A stretch of 63,297 bases of DNA, the filler included, from an uncultured bacterium (GTDB lineage Bacteria; DYJV01): the NCBI GenBank assembly GCA_964543655.1. It is 6 parts of 6 records of this genome, joined end to end, with 100 filler letters (N's around TTAATTAATTAA, not from the genome) between each part and the next. Parts side by side here need not be neighbours in the genome. Positions count along the whole stretch, not along the records: positions 1 to 23,092 come from CAZIZE010000020.1; 5 more parts are not named here. One strand, 5' to 3'. The notes under the pieces are model-generated. The model was not told where the DNA came from, searched no databases, and saw only the letters and a list, made by a program, of their open reading frames with translations. Made by a program: the position numbers and the translations under genes. Every line of letters begins with the position of its first letter. Position 1 is the first letter of the stretch. Below, one piece after another: positions 1-48,714 of this stretch.

Positions 1-2948
1 TTAATTTTTACAAAATCTTTTTCTTTAAATGCATTTTTTAACTCTAAGAAATCTTTATTTATATTTTCAAAAAATTTATTTTTAAGTGAGTTAATAATTT
101 CCTCATTATCTCCTACAAGCTCTTTAAGGCTTTCTATATCAATTAAATTTCTCTTTGAGGATATTTTTTCATTAGAAGTAGAAACAAACTCTAATATTTT
201 TGATATTAATTCTTCAATATTAATTGGCTTTGTAGTATAATCATTGAAACCTGTATCAAATATTTTCCTTTTGTGTGTATCATCATCATGGCCTGTTAAT
301 GCAATAATTTTTAAATTTTTCCCTTTCAATTTATTTTTCAATTCACTTGAAATGTTTGTAATATCAACTCCTTTTTCTATGTCTCTAATAACTTCAACTG
401 TCTCATAACCATTCATCTCTGGCATTTCAATATCCATTAAAACAATATCAAAATCATCTTTTTCAAGTTTTTTTAAAGCTTCTATCCCTGTTCCTGCTAT
501 ATCTGTTGTTATACCATATTTATTGAGAATCTCCTGTAAAAAAGTTTGATTAAAAATATCATCTTCAACAATTAACACTTTTAAACCTTTTAATTTCTCT
601 ACTTCTTGAGAATCATCTATCTCTTCTACCTCTGCAAGGGTTATCTCATCACCAAGTGGCAATTCAAGTGTAAAATAAAATATACTTCCCCTGCCATACT
701 CACTCTCTACCTGCAATTTTCCACCCATTTGATTTACTAAATTCTTACAAATTGTAAGCCCAAGCCCTGTACCACCAAACTTTCTTGTGGTAGATGAGTC
801 AGCTTGAGAAAAGGTTTCAAATATTTTTTCAACTTTATCTTCAGAGATTCCTATTCCTGTATCACTAACTGAAAATTTAATTTTAACTTTATCTTCACTT
901 CTATTTATTAATTCTGCAATAATAGTTACACTACCTTTAGATGTAAATTTTATAGCATTGCTAACCAAATTATTTAAAACCTGATTTATTCTAAATTTGT
1001 CTCCTTTTACCATTTCTGGAATTTTCTCATCAACGCTGTAAATAAGATTAAGCCCCTTTTCCTCTGCTTTAAATCGAAAAACATCAGCACATTCTTTTAT
1101 GAGATTCCTAATACTAAAGTTTCTCATTTCATACTCAATTTTACCTTTTTCTAATTTTGCAAGATCAAGAATATCATTAATTATGTTTATTAAGTTATTT
1201 GATGAATCTTTTATTATATTGAGATATTTTATCTGTTTCTCATTAAGATTATCAGAATTAAGAAGCAGGTCAACAAACCCCACTATTGCATTCATTGGAG
1301 TTCTTATTTCATGACTCATATTTGCAAGAAATTGAGACTTCGCTTCCTTTGCTTCTTCTGCTAACATTTTAGCTTCAACTAAAGCTTTCTCCCTTGCAAT
1401 CCGCTCAGATATATCTTTGAAGGTAATTATGATTTTCTCTGTTTTCCCGTTATTAATTAGAGGAATCAAAGAAATTTCTACTGGAATTAATGAATTATCT
1501 TTTCTTGTATAATATAACCTTTTTTTAATAACCTTCTGATTTGCCAATAATATTTTAATTCCACACTCTTCTTCCTTTATTCTGTCTAAAGTATCCATAT
1601 TAACACCCTGCACCACATCTCTAACAACTTTTCCTAATACCTCTCCCTTTGTATATCCAAGAATATTTAAACCTGGTTTGTTAATATACTCTATCTCCAT
1701 CTCAGGGGAAACAAAAATTATCCCTGTATCAATATTTTCTGTAATTTTCTCTGTAATACTCCTCTCTGTTTTTATTTCTCTTATGATTTTTAAAAATATA
1801 TCTGAAATTATTTGTAGCTCTTCAAAATCATAATCATTATTTTCAAATTCATTCTCCTTTGCAGCTTTTACTAAAGAATCTTTTAATAAATTAAAATTTT
1901 GCGAAAATTTCTTATTAATATTGTAAAAATAAAAGATTATAAATCCTAAAAAAAGTGCAAGTAAGATAAGAAAAACAATAAAAATTTTTGATAAAAAATT
2001 TACAAAGTATTGATTGGTGGAATTAATAACACTCTCTATATCTTTTAAATGGGAAAAAGAGATTACTTTCCATTTTAGATTTTTTATTTCTATTGTATAA
2101 GCATAGTGCTGATTTCCATGGGACATGAAAGTTTTAAAATTTTTATTTTTAAAGTCTCTATAATTAAGCTTTAATGGTTTTGATATATTTTTTTTAAATA
2201 TTATCTGATTTTCACTGGTTAAAATTAAAATACTAATTTTAGCAGGAATAACTGTATAAGCTAATTGTTTTAAAATATCTTTTTTTAAAATATTGTAAAA
2301 ATCTTCATAAAAAATTGTCATACCTATTATCCAGTTGTAAGGTCTGAAAAATTTAACAAAACAAATTTTTTTATTTAATTGGTTACTAACTTTATATTTC
2401 CAGTAATACTCAACATACCCTTCACCTTTTGTTAATGCAGTTTTTATAACCTCTTTAACAAAATATTTACCTTTTTTATCTCTAAAATTAGAAATATCTT
2501 TTCCTTCTATTTTTGGAAAAGCAGAATTCATCTCAACAGTGCCATTTATATTTTGAATAAAAAAATATTCCAATCCTTTTCTATAAGTTAATTTTCTAAG
2601 TGTTTCCTTTATAGTTGTTTTAATAAGTTCATCAGGAATATTTTTGCCTTTATGATTAAAATAGATAGATTTTGCAATTGAATAAGCCTCATAAACATGA
2701 TTTTTAAGTTCACTTTTTGCAATTTTATCTGCATTTTTAAAAGAGGAGTTTATAAAATCCACAACAGATAGATTCTCTTTTACAATCATATCTCTAAATA
2801 GAGAGAGTTCTTCTTTTTTTATATAAGATATACTTTTTTTATGAAGTGAATCAAAGAGGAGTAAAAATGAAAAAATTATTACAATAGAAAAGAGAATTAT
2901 AGAAATAGTTATTTTTTTGTTAAGTTTACTGTATGAAGATTTGTTCAT
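1..2948 (-). CDS. Hybrid sensor histidine kinase (TM-Cache-TM, PAS, HisKA, HATPase, receiver, start of Hpt); runs off the left edge
   Basis: Not in the ORF track. ATG at 2948 overlaps the stop of the upstream regulator (ATGA). Hand translation gives H-box FLANMSHEIRTPMNAIVGF in the same frame, QVLNNLVSNAIKFT, DTGIGI, GGTGLGL and receiver motif LMDIEMPEMNGY. Confidence 0.9.
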   Translation of the reverse strand, partial: MNKSSYSKLNKKITISIILFSIVIIFSFLLLFDSLHKKSISYIKKEELSLFRDMIVKENLSVVDFINSSFKNADKIAKSELKNHVYEAYSIAKSIYFNHKGKNIPDELIKTTIKETLRKLTYRKGLEYFFIQNINGTVEMNSAFPKIEGKDISNFRDKKGKYFVKEVIKTALTKGEGYVEYYWKYKVSNQLNKKICFVKFFRPYNWIIGMTIFYEDFYNILKKDILKQLAYTVIPAKISILILTSENQIIFKKNISKPLKLNYRDFKNKNFKTFMSHGNQHYAYTIEIKNLKWKVISFSHLKDIESVINSTNQYFVNFLSKIFIVFLILLALFLGFIIFYFYNINKKFSQNFNLLKDSLVKAAKENEFENNDYDFEELQIISDIFLKIIREIKTERSITEKITENIDTGIIFVSPEMEIEYINKPGLNILGYTKGEVLGKVVRDVVQGVNMDTLDRIKEEECGIKILLANQKVIKKRLYYTRKDNSLIPVEISLIPLINNGKTEKIIITFKDISERIAREKALVEAKMLAEEAKEAKSQFLANMSHEIRTPMNAIVGFVDLLLNSDNLNEKQIKYLNIIKDSSNNLINIINDILDLAKLEKGKIEYEMRNFSIRNLIKECADVFRFKAEEKGLNLIYSVDEKIPEMVKGDKFRINQVLNNLVSNAIKFTSKGSVTIIAELINRSEDKVKIKFSVSDTGIGISEDKVEKIFETFSQADSSTTRKFGGTGLGLTICKNLVNQMGGKLQVESEYGRGSIFYFTLELPLGDEITLAEVEEIDDSQEVEKLKGLKVLIVEDDIFNQTFLQEILNKYGITTDIAGTGIEALKKLEKDDFDIVLMDIEMPEMNGYETVEVIRDIEKGVDITNISSELKNKLKGKNLKIIALTGHDDDTHKRKIFDTGFNDYTTKPINIEELISKILEFVSTSNEKISSKRNLIDIESLKELVGDNEEIINSLKNKFFENINKDFLELKNAFKEKDFVKI

Positions 2949-4438
2949 AATTTAATTATATTTTTCTCCGCTTTTTCAAAAAGTTCTTCAACTGTGCCCA
3001 CACTATCTGTAGTAACAATTCCAAAATCAACATCTATTCCAATACTATTTTTAATTCGTTTACAAATTTTAAGGCTAAGGATAAGATTAGCACCTGATAA
3101 ATATATAAAAAACTTATTTCTAAAAAATTTAGCTTTATCATCTTTTCTTAAAATTTCATTTATTTTTTGCAAAATTTTATCATCGTCCTTATTTAAATGT
3201 AAACAAACAAGTGAAGATATTATACCATTTAATTTATCTCTACTTAAATTTGCATCTACAAACTCCATAAAATCATTATAAATATTCTCTCTCTTAACAA
3301 TAGTGTCTATTTTATTTTTAAAATTAATAAATTTTGAATAACCAAGCCAGATATTAACCTTTAATATTAATTCTCTCATTTCAATAGGTGCCCATAGGTA
3401 ATCACTTGCTCCAAGCTCAAGAATTTTATATATATTCTTTCTATCAGCAATAGAGGAGTAAACTATAATTGGAATATTTTTATTGACTTTTCTGAATATT
3501 TTTACACCATCAAATGCTGTTTCATTGTTAAGTATTAAATCCATTAATATTAAATCAAATCTATTATCCTCTAAAAATGCTTTTGCTTTTTCTAAATTTT
3601 CAACAGAGATAACCTGATTATTATTTATTGATAGACTTGAATATATAACTTTTCTCCTTGTAAATGAATCTTCTATTAATAAAATTTTTGAAGACTCATC
3701 ATTGTGGAAATATCTCTTTAAAAAACCAACAACTTCTGATTCATTAAATGGTTTTTTAAAATAAGCTGAAATTCCTGAATTAAATCCTTCTTCAATTACT
3801 TCATTAAATCTTTGAGAACCTGTTATGAGAATTATTGGTATTTTTTTTAATTTTTCATTTTTTGAAATTTTTTGGGCAAGCTCTATTCCATTAAAATCAG
3901 GCATTACATAATCAACAATTATAAGATCAGGCGAAATTTCCTCAGCTTTTTTCAAACCCTCAGTTGCATTCTCAGCCTCAAAACATTTATACCCATGTGA
4001 AGTAAGGATTCTTTTCATTATATTTCTTGAAGTCCTTGAATCATCCACCATTAAAATTTTTTCTAATTTTTTCTTATTTTTTGAAAGTAATGCAAAATTA
4101 ACAGCTTCTATAATTTCTTGTTTATAGAAAGGCTTTCTCAGAATAAAAGCATAACCTTCTCCATCTTCAACAGGGTTGTATCTGCTCTGAGTAAGAAGAA
4201 TTGATGGTGGAATGGATTCAATCCCACTTTGAATTAATTTTGAAAAAATATCTTTTGCTGATAAATCTTTTAAAGTCCTATCTATTATTAAAAAATCATA
4301 TTTTTTCTCATCTGACAGTAGAGAGTCTAATAATTCTTGAAAATTTTCAACTTGCTTAATGTAAAAAGACTCTCTCAACATCTCTATAATTAATTCACCT
4401 GTAATTTTTGAGCCTGTAAATATTAATCCATGTTTCAT
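2945..4438 (-). CDS. Multi-receiver response regulator (three REC domains) with a degenerate GGDEF-like C-terminal domain
   Basis: ILMVDDS...DYVMPDFNG...KKPF and LLIEDS...LMDLIL receiver motifs plus a degenerate N-terminal receiver. The tail EELFEKAEK resembles a GGDEF end, but no GG[D/E]EF motif is present. Confidence 0.8.
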   Translation of the reverse strand: MKHGLIFTGSKITGELIIEMLRESFYIKQVENFQELLDSLLSDEKKYDFLIIDRTLKDLSAKDIFSKLIQSGIESIPPSILLTQSRYNPVEDGEGYAFILRKPFYKQEIIEAVNFALLSKNKKKLEKILMVDDSRTSRNIMKRILTSHGYKCFEAENATEGLKKAEEISPDLIIVDYVMPDFNGIELAQKISKNEKLKKIPIILITGSQRFNEVIEEGFNSGISAYFKKPFNESEVVGFLKRYFHNDESSKILLIEDSFTRRKVIYSSLSINNNQVISVENLEKAKAFLEDNRFDLILMDLILNNETAFDGVKIFRKVNKNIPIIVYSSIADRKNIYKILELGASDYLWAPIEMRELILKVNIWLGYSKFINFKNKIDTIVKRENIYNDFMEFVDANLSRDKLNGIISSLVCLHLNKDDDKILQKINEILRKDDKAKFFRNKFFIYLSGANLILSLKICKRIKNSIGIDVDFGIVTTDSVGTVEELFEKAEKNIIKL

Positions 4439-4992: not shown

Positions 4993-7900
4993 TTATCTCC
5001 AGGCATCATAAAGCTTACCAAGAATACCCTCTGACTCTTTTTCTGCTGCAATATATTCTCCATTAGCATTTACTTTAACAGTTATGTAATTACCATTATA
5101 AGTTAATACTTTTGCATCTTTAACAGGAGCAAAATAGATATCTCCAGGTGCCTTTCTATAAATTACAGGTGTAGCACCATCAAAAGGCAACTGAATAATC
5201 ATAGTTTTACCATCAAGGTCTTCAACATCAATTTTGCACATATATCCTTCTATAAAACCTGCACCTTTAGCATATACTGAAACTTTCCCAGGAACAAAAC
5301 CCATTTCAATTATCTTAGGTTTTAGCTCTGCAGGAACATAGAAGTAATGTTTATCTGACCATGGACCATTTACAACCTGCCTTACATATTCTTCATTTAA
5401 TTCTTCAGAGCTGAAGTTAGATGAAGAAACTCCAAGTTCATCTGCAATTTTACCTTTTTCAACTTTACCTTCTGCAACTATATAGAATAACTCTTCAGCA
5501 TGATGCTTACTTAGAGCAAGTACATCTTTAGCTTCAGCACCAAGAAATTTTACTCCATTTGCTTCAACAGGTTTAATATACGCAACTTCACCATCCACAA
5601 TGAAAAATCCATTAGGATTAGCTGGCTCCATTTTACCTGTTTCTTCATTGTATTTAAGAGCTCTATTTTCTTCTTTAAACCAAGCTGGTGCCCATGGCAT
5701 AAAACCTATAATCCTATCAGTAATTCTGTGTGCACCTGCATCTTTCTTATAATCACCGTGACAATCATTACATGATTTAGCACCAAGTGCTTTATCAGCA
5801 GGTAATACTCCATGGCTATCAGAAAAGTAATGTGCTGCAATAAAAAGCATTGGTTTTGGATCTTTTTCACCTTCTGCTTTTAAAACTTTAGTTAAAGCTT
5901 CCTGCATTGCTTTAACATCCTCATCCCACCAGATATCTGGAAAACCATCACCTGTATGATCACAGATCACATATCCACTATCTTTTAATACAACTTTACC
6001 AATATTTGGATTATCTTTACACTCCTGTGGTCCTATATTTTCAAGCTGTTTAGGAGTATATGCATAAAATGTAGATACTGGCAAAAATTTATCTATTGCT
6101 GCGTTAATCTCTCTTAAATATAAAACTTTAGCACCATTGTATGGTAAATCACTCATATCATGATCAGGTTGAGGATTAGCATCAACCCATGTTAAAATAG
6201 TAATAGGGTTACCAATAACTATCTGAGGATAACCATTTTCACCATTTGCCCAGTATAGAGGTGGAAAAACTTCATTATCATTTTTATCTGTGTAATGTAT
6301 TGGTAAACCTTCATCAATTGCCCTATTGAGACTTAATTGATAAAATTTCTTCCAGAAATCAAACTTTGGATTAGTCATAAGACCATTTACTAATGGTCCT
6401 GTGTCTGCTTCACTATCAAACCAGAAATAATCAACCATTTGTGCTATATAATCCATTGGCTGTGTGCCATTTCCATCAGCATCTATGTGTTGTGACACCA
6501 TATGAAAGTGTGGAATACCATATCCTGGTGAAGTTCCATAAACAGGAGAAAGAGCATAATATGGTGGAAAAGCCATTGCTGGAAAATTTGATAATCCACC
6601 AGCTAAGATATAGTATCCAAATCTATTGTCAAAGTTTGAATAATACCCAAGTGTATCATCAAAAGTTCTAAATCTCCAGGTTCTTCTATATGGCACATGG
6701 CAAGTTTGACAAGCAATTTCAGCAATATGCCTTTCTGTATTTTCACCAAATTTCTCTTCATGTGCTTTTGTAGGATTAGGTGCATTTGGGTCTCCGCCCA
6801 TCAAGTGACAATACTCACAGGTCTTAGGTTTTGGGTTATTATCAAGGTCATTTCTAACCATATGTGCAGTATCAGTGCCTTTAAGGAAATTATGCTTTTC
6901 TTCTATTGTACCTGATTCTCTAAGGTGGCAGGAACCACAACCCATTTTTTTACCAGACATATGAACATCATAACCTGGTGATTCTTTATCAGCTGTAAAA
7001 TTAACAAATTGACCATTTTTTACCCAATCAGCTGGCATACCAAGATTATATGTTCTACCCCTTGTCCATTCGCTATTTCCATGGTCCTTTGTCATAACAT
7101 GGCACTGACCACAAACCTTAATCCACTTCCATGAATTAATGTCTTTGTTACCACCAAAAATATCAATATTAACACTACCATCTCCTAAATCACCAGCATT
7201 GTAGTAAACTTTTGGAACCCAATCATTTCCAACTTTATCAATTTGAATATATACAATTGGAGTTCCATCATGGTTCAAATCAAGTCCCATTAAATCAGCT
7301 GATGGCATTAAGTAGAAGAAATTTGGCAGATAATCATGCTTTACTGACATATTTTTTAGAACATCAAAAGGTATCTTGCCACTTGTCCAATCAGCTATAA
7401 CTTTAGCTAAGTTAATACCAAAAAATGAATTTTTATCATAATATGTCATATCTCCCTGCATCACTTTCATATACGCATATTGAAAAGCAGCCCAACCAAC
7501 ACCAACAAGTCCACTATACTGAATGCCTTGCCCCTCTACAAGTGGTGACCTAACATAATCTCTAACTGATGCATCAGGATCATCCCAATCTGTGTAGAAT
7601 TTACCAGGTTCATACAGTCTTAATGGATATGGGATAGGCAATAATCCACCTGTACCTGGATCTCTAATCTCATATCCATAAATGAATTGATTAAAAAATG
7701 CCTGCATCATCTGATCCATAGTAAGATTGAGATTATATTTAGTGTTAATATAATTTAGCATTTTCATAAAAATTCCACCAATTGCCTGCTGATTGCTCAT
7801 AAGTTTCTGCATTTCATCAGCACCACCGTTGGGGTTATAGGTAAATGCATCTTTGATTCCAGTCTGAGTGTAAATATTTGGAGCTATTTGTGGACTTGCA

Positions 7901-9006
7901 TACAAAGCATATGGTAATGATTTACCTGTAGGGTCAATCTCTTTGAGCCCATCTGTCCAAATTTTGAAAAGCTCACCAATATCGTCCTTAGGAAGTTGAC
8001 TTAAAATAAAGTATTGTTTTCCAATAGGCCTTGTCATTCGCATAATATCATTGGTATAATTGAGGACACTGCTATTTAAAACTCCTTCTTTAGTTGGCAT
8101 ACCAAGTGATATTTTGGTAATCTGGCCATTTGCATCTCTCTCTGCAAAAATCATAAGTCTTGGTCTGAAAGGTTGAACTTTAAGGCCATCTGCTGCTGTA
8201 TATACATCTGGATTACTATTTAAATCAGGATCTATGTGGCAAAGGAGACAATCTGCTTCCATAACACCAGATTTTTTCCAATCATGTCTCTTTGGTGCTC
8301 CTATTTCTTTGATTGTTTCATCAATGGATTTGCCACTAATTAATGCTTTAGTAACATCATTTGAGGAATAATCATAAAAATCTCTGTCATAAGAATGAAC
8401 TGGAGTTAAACTTGGGCTATCATAAGGTGTAACAGAGCCATCACTATTTACAATACCTTCAGCAGGCCCACCTCCTGCGTGGCATGAATAGCAAACAGCC
8501 ATTTCATCTGCTATACCCACATCAAAAAAGTATGGTTTACCTTCTGATGTAAAAGGATCCTTATAGCTTCCTCTCTGCTTCTTAGCCGCCAACTGACGGT
8601 AAGAAGGAGGTCACCACGCACCAAACTGACCACCTGCTTCAAGATGGCCATAAGCATGGGTTAAATATTTTTGAAGAGTGTTGTTCTGATTTTTAGAAAC
8701 CCACAAGTCATCAGTTCTTTTTCCATAAGGACCAACACCTTCTCTAAAATGATAAGCCATTGTTATTGATTTATAATCATGACATTTCCCACAGGTCTGT
8801 TTAGGACTGTAAGCAGGTCCCTTATAATAAACAGAACCATTTGCTGCAACTATTTTATCAGTTTTATCCAACTGATTTATTATTGGATTTCCATTCCTAT
8901 CCAATAATTGCACAGCAGGGTGTGCCATTAACAAGGATGGAATTGCAATCAGAATTGCAATTACAAATGAAAACCAGAAGATTTTGCTTTTTGCTTTTAC
9001 TGACAT
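4993..9006 (-). CDS. Octaheme c-type cytochrome selenoprotein (1337 aa, Sec132), octaheme tetrathionate reductase-like scaffold, exported
   Basis: ORFs 8611-9006 and 4993-8592 are in frame across a single TGA (8611-8613): GGQFGAW-U-PPSYRQLAAKK. SECIS-like hairpin directly downstream, N-terminal signal peptide, 8 CxxCH motifs at aa 72, 172, 253, 632, 690, 730, 766 and 1079. Confidence 0.85.
8570..8610 (-). promoter_or_regulatory. Bacterial SECIS-like hairpin
   Basis: mRNA UGA-CCUC-CUUCUUA-CCGUC-[AGUU]-GGCGG-C-UAAGAAG-CAGA-GAGG forms three stacked helices; the G-containing apical loop starts 16 nt after the UGA. Confidence 0.8.
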
Positions 9007-9059: not shown

Positions 9060-9977
9060 CTACTTTTTATACATTATTATGTTGTTATGACATCTCATAC
9101 AATCAGATGTTGTATGACAAACATTACATGATCTAAAGTTCTTTTCAGCTTCCTCAGCATGACCTGGCATTGGAGTAAACCTTACCCAGTCTCCCCTTCT
9201 ATGAGAAATTGGTTTTTCACTTTTATGGCAATCTGCACAGTATGATGCTGTGTGGCATGTTGCGCAAAGTTTTCTATCATGAATTGCTTCTATACCATGC
9301 TGTGAAGTTTTCCAATTGAATATATGGTCTTTTGGTTTTTTTGTTCTGTGGCAATCTTGACAGAAATTACCATTTTTCTTAAAATGTGGATCATGGCAAT
9401 ATCTACAGCTATCATCAAATTTACTTGCTAATCCATGATTTGATTCCCAGTCACCATGATGGGACTCAGGAGGAACATCTTTTCTTATTTTTTTATGACA
9501 TGTATCACACTCTATAGGAGCTGTATCACCATCGTGGCACTCTAAACATTTTGTCATTTTCGGCCAAGAAATATTTTGAATAGTTTTAGATTTATCAATT
9601 CCTTTATGACATCTGCTACATTTATAATCTGAATGTGGGTCATGGGTAAAGATTAAATCTTTATAACTTGCTGGTTTTGGATTAACACCAACTTCCACTT
9701 CATAATCTTTTTTAGAGCTTTGAATTGTATGGCATTTAAGACAATCTTTTGTAGGATTATCAACATCTCCAATATCATGACAATCACTACATGTATCCAT
9801 ATCTGGATTGGACATATTGCCATTGTCATCTGCTTTATGACAGGTTGAACACTCAATCTCATTTTCAACAACATGCAGATTATGATTGAATTTTAAATCT
9901 GTGGAACCTTTCTTGCAACCAATTAACCCTAAAGATAGAATAGCTGCTATTATAAAAATTTTTTTAAAAAATCCCAT
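9060..9977 (-). CDS. Dodecaheme cytochrome c lipoprotein
   Basis: Lipobox LIG-C at aa 21; 12 CxxCH motifs in 305 aa (CSTCH, CSDCH, CLKCH, CSRCH, CLECH, CDTCH, CRYCH, CQDCH, CATCH, CADCH, CNVCH, CMRCH). Confidence 0.9.
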   Translation of the reverse strand: MGFFKKIFIIAAILSLGLIGCKKGSTDLKFNHNLHVVENEIECSTCHKADDNGNMSNPDMDTCSDCHDIGDVDNPTKDCLKCHTIQSSKKDYEVEVGVNPKPASYKDLIFTHDPHSDYKCSRCHKGIDKSKTIQNISWPKMTKCLECHDGDTAPIECDTCHKKIRKDVPPESHHGDWESNHGLASKFDDSCRYCHDPHFKKNGNFCQDCHRTKKPKDHIFNWKTSQHGIEAIHDRKLCATCHTASYCADCHKSEKPISHRRGDWVRFTPMPGHAEEAEKNFRSCNVCHTTSDCMRCHNNIIMYKK

Positions 9978-10009: not shown

Positions 10010-11395
10010 CTACCATGTTAAATGAAGATTGGCTGTAATGGCATTAATACCACTAATGCCAAATTCATGATAATAATCATCTGTTTCATATTCATACTTT
10101 AATGAAACCCATTTATCTTCTGCAAATTTATATTTAACACTTCCATAATAGTAATGTGAAGCTTCACCTTCTATTAAGCTATTAACATCCTCTGTTTTAT
10201 AATAAAATCCTGCATTTAAACTGACCTTTTCACAAATTTCTTGCTCAAGATCAGCAAACCATGATTCAGAAGAACTATCGTAAAGATGTTTTTTATCTTC
10301 TTTCCAGTAGCTGTAACCTATGGAAAATTTGGTTCCCTTTAATTTCCACCAGTTATCAAGGTTTAAACCAACACTCCATCTGTAAAAATCTGTATTGTAT
10401 AGATTTTCATAAATATTTTCATAATCATCATTAATATCTCTTCTTGTATATTTCACATAAAAAGTCATTCCTTCCTGCTTTGGTATTGGCTGACTAATAG
10501 AAATAGAATAGTCAATATAGCCATATAACCTTGCAAGGTAAAACCTTTTAATATCTTTCCCTATATTGTCTTCAATAGTTGTAGTATAATCGTAGAGGAA
10601 ATCATCTTTAACAGGAATGGTAAATCTTTTATAAATATCAATGGTAAGAGTGGTTTTAGTATAAGGGCATGTGGCAATTAAATCTACATTCCAGAATCTA
10701 CTACTTGAATTAATAAATGCAAATCTACCTCTCAATTTAATGTTTTCCATAGGTGTATAATATGTGCCAAGTTCATAAGAATTTTTCTGATAAAAAACAG
10801 AATCAAGATAAAAAATCAAATTTTTAACAGCTTTTACTTCAATATTAAAGCCGCCAACTCCATCCTGCTTTAAATTGGAATATGTTTGAACAATTCTACC
10901 ACCAAAAATTTCAAAATTTAACCAATCTGCAATTGCGCCATCACCAGTAACAGATGCACCATCATAATGTACAATCTCTGAGCTATAAGCATATTGACGG
11001 CCTAATTTAAAATCAACATCAGGTAGCAGGTTCTCTTTTGTAAAATAGGCATAATATACATCCAACTTTTGTCTATTCTTGCCTGTATCCACATAATCTT
11101 GAAAAATAGAGCCAGATGGTGTACCATCTAAATCTTTTGCATATTTACCAAGAAATGAAAATGAGATATCAGAATCATTATGCACTGCATCAATACCTAA
11201 AATTTCAGAAATATCCTGATCACTGTCATCATTGCTAACTAAAAAACCATTGGGCTTATCTGACCATTGGTAAATATACTTGGTGTTACTAAAGAGATTA
11301 ATTGACCCCCAATCAAAATCATGGGAATATAGAAAAGAGGTTGTTAAAAGAAATACAAAAATCATAAAGAGCTTAAAAGAACATTTCCATTTCAT
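10010..11395 (-). CDS. Outer-membrane beta-barrel (putative porin of a porin-cytochrome complex)
   Basis: Signal peptide, Tyr/Asp/Gly-rich alternating strands (DFKLGRQY, LNAGFYY, SVKYKF), C-terminal ANLHLTW typical of Bam substrates; first gene of the cytochrome operon. Confidence 0.75.
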   Translation of the reverse strand: MKWKCSFKLFMIFVFLLTTSFLYSHDFDWGSINLFSNTKYIYQWSDKPNGFLVSNDDSDQDISEILGIDAVHNDSDISFSFLGKYAKDLDGTPSGSIFQDYVDTGKNRQKLDVYYAYFTKENLLPDVDFKLGRQYAYSSEIVHYDGASVTGDGAIADWLNFEIFGGRIVQTYSNLKQDGVGGFNIEVKAVKNLIFYLDSVFYQKNSYELGTYYTPMENIKLRGRFAFINSSSRFWNVDLIATCPYTKTTLTIDIYKRFTIPVKDDFLYDYTTTIEDNIGKDIKRFYLARLYGYIDYSISISQPIPKQEGMTFYVKYTRRDINDDYENIYENLYNTDFYRWSVGLNLDNWWKLKGTKFSIGYSYWKEDKKHLYDSSSESWFADLEQEICEKVSLNAGFYYKTEDVNSLIEGEASHYYYGSVKYKFAEDKWVSLKYEYETDDYYHEFGISGINAITANLHLTW

Positions 11396-47436: not shown

Positions 47437-48267
47437 ATGGAAAAAGTTATTATTACTGCTGCTATCACAGGAAGCAGAACCCCAAAAGAGAAGTCACCTT
47501 ATATTCCCATTACCCCCCAAGAGATAGCAGATTCTGCAATAGATGCTGTTAATGCAGGCGCTGCAATAGTTCATATTCATGTGAGAGATCTTCAAACAAA
47601 GCTTGGAACACAGGATGCTCAGTTATACAGGGAAGTGCTTGATAAGATTTATTCAAAGGTTAACCCTGTTGTTTGCCTTACTACAAGTGGGATTCCTGGT
47701 AAAAACTTAGGTTATGAGGAACGTTTTATCCCTCTTCAATTTAAGCCTGAACTTGCTTCATTTGATGCTGGTTCCATTAATGTAAATGATGGAGTATTTC
47801 TTAATCCACCAGATTTTTTAAAACAACTTGCTTTAAAAATGAAAGAAGCAGGGGTCAAACCAGAATTAGAAGTTTTTGATACAGGGATGATAGAGTATTG
47901 CAAATATCTGATGAATGAAGGTTTTCTTGAGCGACCATTACATTTTCAATTTGTTCTTGGTGTAAGAGGTGGTGCAGCTGCATCTGCTAAAACTCTTCTG
48001 CATATGGTAGAGCTAATCCCAGAAGATTCTACATGGTCTGTTATTGGTATAGGTAAAGGACAGCTTCCTATGGTAATGATGGGGCTTGTGCTTGGTGGAC
48101 ATGTTAGGGTTGGTTTAGAGGATAATATTTACTATTCAAAAGGTAGACTTGCAAAGTCTAATGCAGAATTAGTTGAAAGGGTTGTTAGAATAGCAAAAGA
48201 ATTTGGAAGAGAGGTCGCAAGTCCTGATGATGCAAGAAATATTTTATCAATAAAAAAAATGGAGTGA
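47437..48267 (+). CDS. Beta-keto acid cleavage enzyme family (BKACE/Kce, DUF849)
   Basis: IITAAITGS, P.TP.EIA, HIHVRD, KPELEVFD.G, GGHVRVGLEDN, SNAELV. Confidence 0.92.
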   Translation: MEKVIITAAITGSRTPKEKSPYIPITPQEIADSAIDAVNAGAAIVHIHVRDLQTKLGTQDAQLYREVLDKIYSKVNPVVCLTTSGIPGKNLGYEERFIPLQFKPELASFDAGSINVNDGVFLNPPDFLKQLALKMKEAGVKPELEVFDTGMIEYCKYLMNEGFLERPLHFQFVLGVRGGAAASAKTLLHMVELIPEDSTWSVIGIGKGQLPMVMMGLVLGGHVRVGLEDNIYYSKGRLAKSNAELVERVVRIAKEFGREVASPDDARNILSIKKME

Positions 48268-48270
48268 AAA

Positions 48271-48714
48271 ATGAGTTTTAAGACAATTTTAGTGCCAATT
48301 GATTTCTCAGATGATTCATTAAATGCATTAAAGCATGGAATAGAAATTGCCAAAAAGTTTAATTCCAAACTATTTATTTTGCATGTTAACCATGATGAAA
48401 GTTTACTTTATCATTACCTTACTGATGAAGAATTTGAAGAATTAAAAGAGCGTATTATTAAAGATGTTCAGAATCAACTTGAGAAGTTAGAGGATAAGTT
48501 TCCAGAGCTTAAAGATATAGATTATCATTACAGAATAAGACGAGGGGTTCCTTATGTTGAGATTGTTGAAGAAACTGAAAAAGAGCATGTGGATTTGGTT
48601 ATTGTAGGCTCCCATGGTAAGACAAGTGCTAAAAAGTTTTTTTATGGTGGCACTACTTCCAAAGTTGCCAGACGTGCAAAGTGCAATGTTATGATTACGC
48701 GATTAAATGACTAA
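48271..48714 (+). CDS. Universal stress protein
   Basis: ILVPIDFS, DLVIVGSHG, V.R.AKC.V. Confidence 0.92.
   Translation: MSFKTILVPIDFSDDSLNALKHGIEIAKKFNSKLFILHVNHDESLLYHYLTDEEFEELKERIIKDVQNQLEKLEDKFPELKDIDYHYRIRRGVPYVEIVEETEKEHVDLVIVGSHGKTSAKKFFYGGTTSKVARRAKCNVMITRLND

Follow-up and report, generated by a model that had tools for sequence, protein, structure and literature searches.

A putative bacterial SECIS hairpin behind an in-frame UGA in an octaheme cytochrome c gene of an uncultured bacterium

The stretch of DNA analysed here (hereafter the window) comprises 63,297 nucleotides from an uncultured bacterium (GTDB lineage Bacteria; DYJV01; GenBank assembly GCA_964543655.1), in which six parts of six records are joined end to end with 100 filler letters between them; positions 1 to 23,092, which include the locus in question, come from CAZIZE010000020.1. 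On the minus strand, a cytochrome c gene carries a single in-frame UGA, and the RNA immediately 3' of it folds into a stem-loop (positions 8610-8570). Judged from sequence, this hairpin is very probably a functional, family-specific bacterial selenocysteine insertion sequence (SECIS) in the gene of an octaheme selenoprotein, and the two open reading frames (ORFs) that databases keep apart at this site are almost certainly one exported, eight-heme selenoprotein of 1,337 residues. In the mechanism we propose, a ribosome at the UGA would meet the apical stem-loop 16 nt downstream, which would recruit SelB-GTP carrying Sec-tRNA(Sec); selenocysteine (Sec) would thereby be inserted at residue 132 with no termination, yielding one continuous exported octaheme cytochrome c.

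The hairpin, the UGA and the gene

The RNA 3' of the UGA reads CCUC-CUUCUUA-CCGUC-AGUU-GGCGG-C-UAAGAAG-CAGA-GAGG on the minus strand. The features of the site, all on that strand, are:

8613-8611: in-frame UGA, codon 132 of a 1,337-codon gene and the sole in-frame stop from the ATG at 9006 to the stop at 4993
8570..8610: complete putative SECIS hairpin, composed of outer helix, lower helix, bulged C and apical stem-loop
8610-8607 / 8573-8570: outer helix, CCUC / GAGG
8606-8600 / 8584-8578: lower helix, CUUCUUA / UAAGAAG
8599-8595 / 8590-8586: apical stem, CCGUC / GGCGG
8594-8591: apical loop, AGUU
8585: bulged C
8577-8574: CAGA segment
8586..8599: apical stem-loop CCGUC-AGUU-GGCGG, which is presumed to bind SelB, within codons TAC CGT CAG TTG GCG GC
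4993..9006: gene predicted by translation to encode an exported, eight-heme (8 CxxCH) cytochrome c selenoprotein of 1,337 residues, with a PF22113 match
8923..9006: signal peptide, residues 1-28, a hydrophobic N-terminus ending ..LLMA/HP, located solely on the part before the UGA

The first-pass annotation had drawn these hairpin elements, their pairings and the spacing of the loop; all are found in place, and RNAfold returns the drawn structure as both the minimum free energy (MFE) and the centroid fold, at -19.0 kcal/mol and 77% of the ensemble. The core hairpin still forms when a longer segment of 141 nt is folded. The structure begins at the first base past the UGA, and its 4-nt AGUU loop starts 16 nt after the UGA; the upper stem of 5 bp is followed by one bulged C and then by 7 more pairs. 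The apical stem-loop encodes (Ty)r-Arg-Gln-Leu-Ala-(Ala).

In the bacterial SECIS (bSECIS) model, as set out in the legend to Fig. 2 of PMC13188914, a loop of 3-9 nt sits on a stem of 4-16 bp, a G stands at the first or second loop position and is mostly followed by G or U, 16-37 nt separate the UGA from the apical loop, and the MFE is at most -7.5 kcal/mol. The general bacterial SECIS model invoked in the first-pass annotation agrees with that legend, and the present hairpin falls within all four constraints and sits inside the coding sequence, directly 3' of a UGA that is in frame. Its 16-nt spacing is the lower limit of the model, with no indels in the 57 aligned sequences described below. 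As far as can be told from such features, the hairpin would be a member of the bSECIS kind.

A second strong hairpin lies just upstream of the UGA (window 8627-8650, minus strand, codons ~119-127), with a 9-bp stem including G-U pairs and a UGAAGC loop; the 48 nt past codon 115 fold at -19.1 kcal/mol. The peptide encoded there is HLEAGGQ here and HLLSPGQ in homologs, so this upstream hairpin may not be conserved.

Translation through the UGA joins an ORF at 8611-9006 (131 aa) with an ORF at 4993-8592 (1199 aa) in the same frame, which stays open for 1,205 further codons past the UGA, to the stop at 4993. The Shine-Dalgarno-like sequence AAAGGAGGAGG precedes the ATG at 9006. The eight CxxCH motifs, at C72, C172, C253, C632, C690, C730, C766 and C1079, are conserved, and the MtrC/MtrF-like domain PF22113 is matched at 32.5 bits against a cut-off of 30. 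TGA ends 5 other ORFs of the 48 in the window, so that UGA is an ordinary stop elsewhere and a reassigned genetic code is excluded. One other junction in the window was considered as a second selenoprotein gene, where an ORF at 47437-48267 ending in TGA is followed in frame by an ORF at 48271-48714 on the plus strand; the junction reads GGAG-TGA-AAA-ATG and is followed by no hairpin, and the two were rejected as ordinary adjacent genes.

AlphaFold2 modelling of 1,200 residues gave a predicted TM-score (pTM) of 0.80, with predicted local distance difference test (pLDDT) values below 50 at model residues 58-114, Sec being model residue 104. A model of the N-terminal 302 residues, built on a 59-row alignment, is poor throughout (mean pLDDT 50.9). 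Given the low pLDDT around the site in both, neither model informs on the environment of the Sec residue.

Conservation of the hairpin and suppression of synonymous change

A protein search returned 92 relatives of the cytochrome, 83 of them close, and a scan of one genome per prokaryotic species returned 69 loci, 60 of which cover the site; the 9 not reaching it were excluded. Judged from record titles, the loci are mostly from metagenome-assembled genomes (MAGs) of Desulfobacterota/Thermodesulfobacteriota. The codon aligned to the UGA is TGA in 56 of the 60 loci, a Cys codon in two (TGC in L051, TGT in L053) and the Leu codon CTG in two (L049 and L056). The core CCGYC-AG[U/G]U-GGCGG is kept in all 56 TGA loci as well as in the window, whereas the hairpin is absent or broken in all four loci with Cys or Leu at the site. 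Conservation in TGA-bearing homologs, on which the first-pass annotation had staked its SECIS interpretation, is thus complete for the apical stem-loop (56/56, versus 0/4 for the Cys and Leu loci).

The 51 nt from the UGA align gap-free in 57 sequences. All 5 pairs of the apical stem are kept in every one of them (4 as U-G), the apical loop is AGUU in 45 and AGGU in 12 (counted by eye in the alignment), and RNAalifold retains exactly the five apical-stem pairs. Across 54 distinct sequences, the drawn structure as a whole has 86.9% of its cells paired; sliding the 3' partners by 1-3 columns lowers this to 31.8-54.9%. The mean MFE of the 51 nt is -20.0 in the 56 TGA loci (range -28.1 to -10.6) versus -10.2 in the 4 non-TGA loci. 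The Cys loci encode F-R-Q-L-A-A as "TTC AGG CAG CTT GCA GC.", from which the hairpin is not formed. The Leu loci retain TAC CGC CAG TTG, but GCA replaces the GCG that the stem requires, and their hairpin remnant looks like a decaying relic.

The three paralog forms occur together in each of two MAGs, as read from contig names: L041 (TGA), L049 (Leu) and L053 (Cys) in one, and L062 (TGA), L056 (Leu) and L051 (Cys) in the other. The Leu form has a 648-residue N-terminal extension along with the hairpin relic with one stem base altered, and the Cys form extends much further downstream. One TGA locus, L028, belongs to an isolate genome, and its copy has the same hairpin. Another, L063, has an extra in-frame stop 159 codons past the Sec codon, which may point to a pseudogene, a frameshift or faulty assembly.

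Codon entropy was computed over 285 conserved amino-acid columns among ~900 codons in 56 sequences (L040 was dropped, having too little upstream DNA). With codons numbered from the UGA, the values in the apical stem-loop are:

Tyr+4: entropy 0 bits; class median 0.99; 27 conserved columns
Arg+5: entropy 0.37 bits; class median 2.24; 16 conserved columns
Gln+6: entropy 0 bits; class median 0.58; 3 conserved columns
Ala+8: entropy 0 bits; class median 1.8; 12 conserved columns

Each of these four is the lowest-entropy column of its own residue class, and Pro+2, Ser+3 and Lys+10 are likewise the lowest of theirs. Synonymous variation collapses at codons +4 to +8, which form the apical stem, and is normal elsewhere in the gene, indicating selection at the RNA level. 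Since codons in the rest of the gene change synonymously without restraint, neither common descent nor codon bias accounts for the suppression, which is the strongest evidence that the hairpin is functional.

The stability of the fold also exceeds that expected from the encoded peptide. Synonymous recoding was taken as the proper null for a hairpin inside a coding sequence. When codons were drawn according to their usage in the window, recodings averaged -6.07 kcal/mol (sd 2.94) and 1 of 5,000 reached -19; with uniform codons, 46 of 5,000 were as stable as the hairpin. The SECIS interpretation of the first-pass annotation came through all three computable tests: stability against recoding, conservation in TGA-bearing homologs and, as described below, likeness to hairpins behind the UGA of fdhA-type and selD genes in relatives' genomes. 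The suggestion that the segment is locally GC-rich and uses uncommon CGT and GCG codons is likewise borne out by codon counts and a GC scan. In window ORFs, CGT accounts for 3.4% of Arg codons, GCG for 2.1% of Ala codons and TTG for 9.9% of Leu codons; the hairpin stem also uses two AAG codons (17% of Lys codons). The 45 nt after the UGA are 55.6% GC versus a gene mean of 35.7%, with 13 of 1,323 gene windows equally GC-rich, and the GC content of the whole window is 29.4%. A UGA followed by the core motif occurs once in the window, with no match in 100 shuffles.

The relatives' genomes encode what the proposed mechanism would need. In all 5 genomes searched, SelB, SelA and SelD score above curated cut-offs and tRNA-Sec scores above its gathering score, and ARAGORN reports tRNA-SeC(tca) in both genomes to which it was applied. 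SelD and FdhA-type genes of these genomes carry their own in-frame TGA. A comparison with hairpins behind such codons, proposed in the first-pass annotation, shows them to be similar: behind the UGA codons of selD and fdh genes there are 18 motif matches, 13 of which follow the bSECIS rules in the MFE fold, and 4 of the 18 are spurious, so that 13 of 14 genuine sites comply, the exception being selD of G001. In G003 and G005, an AGGU loop on a 6-bp stem follows the UGA of fdh-like genes at a distance of 17 nt. G001 is the closest relative, with a PolA 74% identical to the window PolA on the contig that carries the G001 copy of the cytochrome gene. The G002 homolog of PolA (G002:C156:6533-9072) gives two partial matches, one interrupted by an in-frame TAG and the other by a TGA; a frameshift or faulty assembly is the probable cause.

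Points against a SECIS and alternative readings

Several results weigh against reading the hairpin as a SECIS. The first concern its statistics. Against dinucleotide shuffles its z is only -2.39, with 3 of 200 shuffles as stable. The bSECIS rules are loose: in a scan of 16,021 codon positions in 39 window ORFs, 3.64% comply, so that compliance alone is weak evidence. Of these positions, 8 (0.05%) comply at -19 kcal/mol or below, and 3 of the 8 are this hairpin. At the gathering threshold, Rfam has no match in the window, and a search of 8480-8720 at E <= 10 returned three noise rows only.

Covariation, which the first-pass annotation had named as a check, gives a divided answer: pairing is conserved in homologs, as described above, and the overall measures of covariation are unconvincing. 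Changes on both sides are seen at pairs 9:35 (CG 30, UA 9, UG 5) and 6:42 (UA 17, CG 6, GC 4). In the apical stem, 0 of 5 pairs have changed on both sides and the RNAalifold covariation term is -0.07; this stem being invariant, the case for it is one of conservation, not of compensatory change. Over the whole structure, 3 pairs have changed on both sides versus 2.3 in shuffles (137 of 500 shuffles reach this number), and the covariation score of 0.079 is lower than those obtained on sliding the partners by +1 (0.087) or +2 (0.104). In many homologs the lower and outer helices form only in part: pair 8:36 is found in 22 and pair 6:42 in 30 of the 54 sequences. To the same side belong the two Leu paralogs, which show that the residue itself can be dispensable, and the window, which holds neither a tRNA nor a sel gene, so that the Sec competence of its organism is presumed from relatives' genomes.

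If the UGA is read through, selenium need not be involved. A stable hairpin close behind a stop could in principle favour SelB-independent programmed read-through, by slowing the ribosome or hindering release factor 2, with a near-cognate tRNA (Trp, Cys or Arg) decoding the UGA; this would sit comfortably with an apical stem that has no compensatory changes and with selenium being deduced from nucleotides and not from the protein. Beyond stability, the loop identity AG[U/G]U and the 16-nt spacing are conserved as well, the same type of loop stands behind fdh-like UGA codons, and Cys occupies the aligned site in two homologs, a classic Sec/Cys pairing. With the full Sec machinery and other UGA-selenoprotein genes present in all five relatives' genomes, we regard SelB-independent read-through as highly improbable, and a SECIS that directs Sec insertion as the far better account of the conserved loop.

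Alternatively, the UGA could be a true stop, with separate production of two proteins, one of 131 aa with a single heme and one of 1,199 aa, the second from a TTG or GTG seven codons on, and the hairpin serving as an intercistronic coupling or stability element. Codon +7 is indeed TTG or GTG, both usable starts, in all 57 sequences, and gene callers place the start exactly there in 43 of the 83 close database homologs. However, codons +1 to +3, which precede any possible restart, show all four third-position bases and always encode Pro-Pro-Ser, that is, they vary synonymously only, and the TTG has no purine-rich Shine-Dalgarno sequence upstream. In all 56 TGA loci, a leader ORF of ~127-131 residues with a signal peptide is in frame with the downstream ORF, which is open for ~1,190-1,320 codons in the 46 TGA loci long enough to show it, and sense codons (Cys, Leu) fill the site in four continuous homologs. 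Moreover, attachment of c-type heme requires export, and a signal peptide is lacking from the 1,199-codon part, with its 7 c-type heme motifs. Termination at the UGA is thus very hard to defend, and one protein translated through a Sec codon fits the constraint on both sides of it.

That the hairpin is a product of chance, or the UGA a sequencing error or the mark of a pseudogene, is scarcely credible and already refuted as far as computation goes: even with 3.64% of codon positions in the window preceding a fold that follows the loose bSECIS rules, TGA and hairpin recur in 56 independent assemblies, 1 in 5,000 synonymous recodings is as stable, and ~1,200 codons are open downstream in most loci.

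Gene neighbourhood, annotation and known systems

Two genes directly upstream of the cytochrome gene recur in related loci:

9060..9977, minus strand: 305-aa cytochrome with 12 CxxCH motifs (counted by eye) and a lipoprotein-like N-terminus, matching Pfam cytochrome c7/c3 families; found in 42 of 69 loci
10010..11395, minus strand: 461-aa protein, presumed to be an outer-membrane beta-barrel, with no match in NCBIfam or Pfam; found in 40 of 69 loci

The gene of the putative Sec octaheme cytochrome is the last of this conserved three-gene module (461-aa protein, 12-heme cytochrome, Sec cytochrome), which appears to resemble a porin-cytochrome conduit. Downstream, at window 3-4438 on the minus strand, are genes for a response regulator and a Cache/PAS hybrid histidine kinase; they recur weakly beside the cytochrome gene, in 2 of 69 loci each, and so lie outside the conserved module.

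In databases, the family is consistently truncated. Among the 83 close homologs, 82 gene calls begin downstream of the Sec site, the 43 at codon +7 and the others later, and a single call, of the Leu form, spans it. With gene calls starting past the site, almost all records lack the selenocysteine together with the signal peptide and the first heme, and where names are given, they are 'hypothetical protein' or 'cytochrome c3 family protein'. The main-text selenoprotein table of a 2026 review (PMC13188914) lists three cytochrome families, ExtKL (NF040886), the GSU2204 family (NF041027) and TIGR04315; the present family fits none of these entries, with TIGR04315 giving a local match only. No literature description of this family was found, supplementary tables, which may list it, being outside the scope of the search. 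In the main texts of the selenoprotein lists checked, this widespread family is uncatalogued. The near-invariant hairpin offers a simple means to recognise these genes and join them correctly, and the joined gene would place a selenium-dependent step in a conserved three-gene module resembling an outer-membrane electron conduit in sulfur-cycling anaerobes.

As to the role of the residue, we raise as a speculative and rather doubtful idea that a porin-cytochrome conduit ends, on its outer side, in a terminal reductase of a new class, with Sec either as its catalytic centre or as an axial ligand to a heme. If so, selenium chemistry would be at work at or beyond the outer membrane, reducing substrates that are insoluble or polymeric (elemental sulfur or polysulfide, for example) and doing so separately from the periplasmic pentaheme MccSep discussed below, and the nearly invariant, family-specific SECIS would be a ready marker for such respiration in metagenomes.

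The module shares with MtrCAB and other porin-cytochrome conduits (Pcc) the order of a (here presumed) outer-membrane protein, a periplasmic 12-heme cytochrome and a large MtrC/MtrF-like cytochrome, kept in 40-42 of 69 loci; unlike in those systems, the 461-aa protein gives no match to MtrB/PioB or to any other family. No Sec-containing conduit cytochrome was found in the literature searched.

The octaheme tetrathionate reductase family TIGR04315, which the review table lists with a GenBank-annotated selenoprotein (PMC13188914), was considered and rejected as the identity of this cytochrome. Both have eight hemes, whereas the match is local (40.4 bits at residues 659-773, versus a cut-off of 375 bits) and far from the Sec site, and the cytochrome here is three times longer. 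Foldseek against the PDB gave no match at E <= 0.001, the best being 1sp3, an octaheme tetrathionate reductase (E 0.016, probability 0.66), and sequence and profile searches of the PDB returned no chain at E <= 1, in a PDB set whose inclusion of MccSep was unchecked.

Another parallel is MccSep, or ExtKL (GSU2937-2936), of Geobacter sulfurreducens, a pentaheme protein of ~49 kDa that has its Sec close to the C-terminus, at residue 325, and that was shown in 2026 to be a selenocysteine polysulfide reductase (PMC13510729). Like it, the protein predicted here would be a multiheme cytochrome c that is exported and has a single Sec, encoded by UGA and preceding a Pro, with a SECIS-like hairpin in the 30 nt that follow the UGA; each is split in two by annotation, and each is found in sulfur-cycling Desulfobacterota. 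In contrast, the protein predicted here is 1,337 residues long, with 8 hemes and with Sec at position 132, and no conserved non-CxxCH cysteine corresponds to the heme-ligating Cys described for MccSep. Identity with MccSep/ExtKL was rejected on these differences in the number of hemes and the place of Sec, and because NF040886 gave no match at E <= 0.01.

At the level of RNA, a close known counterpart is the fdh SECIS of the E. coli fdhF/fdnG type. Like it, the present hairpin is a coding-region stem-loop after a UGA, with a small loop in which U or G comes after a G at position two; the 5-bp upper stem, rich in G/C, is a further likeness, as are spacing and stability (16 nt and an MFE of -19 in this hairpin). 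Unlike it, the present hairpin has an unrelated sequence specific to this cytochrome family and an unpaired C on the 3' side below the upper stem; the bulge of the E. coli fdhF SECIS is instead a U, on the 5' side.

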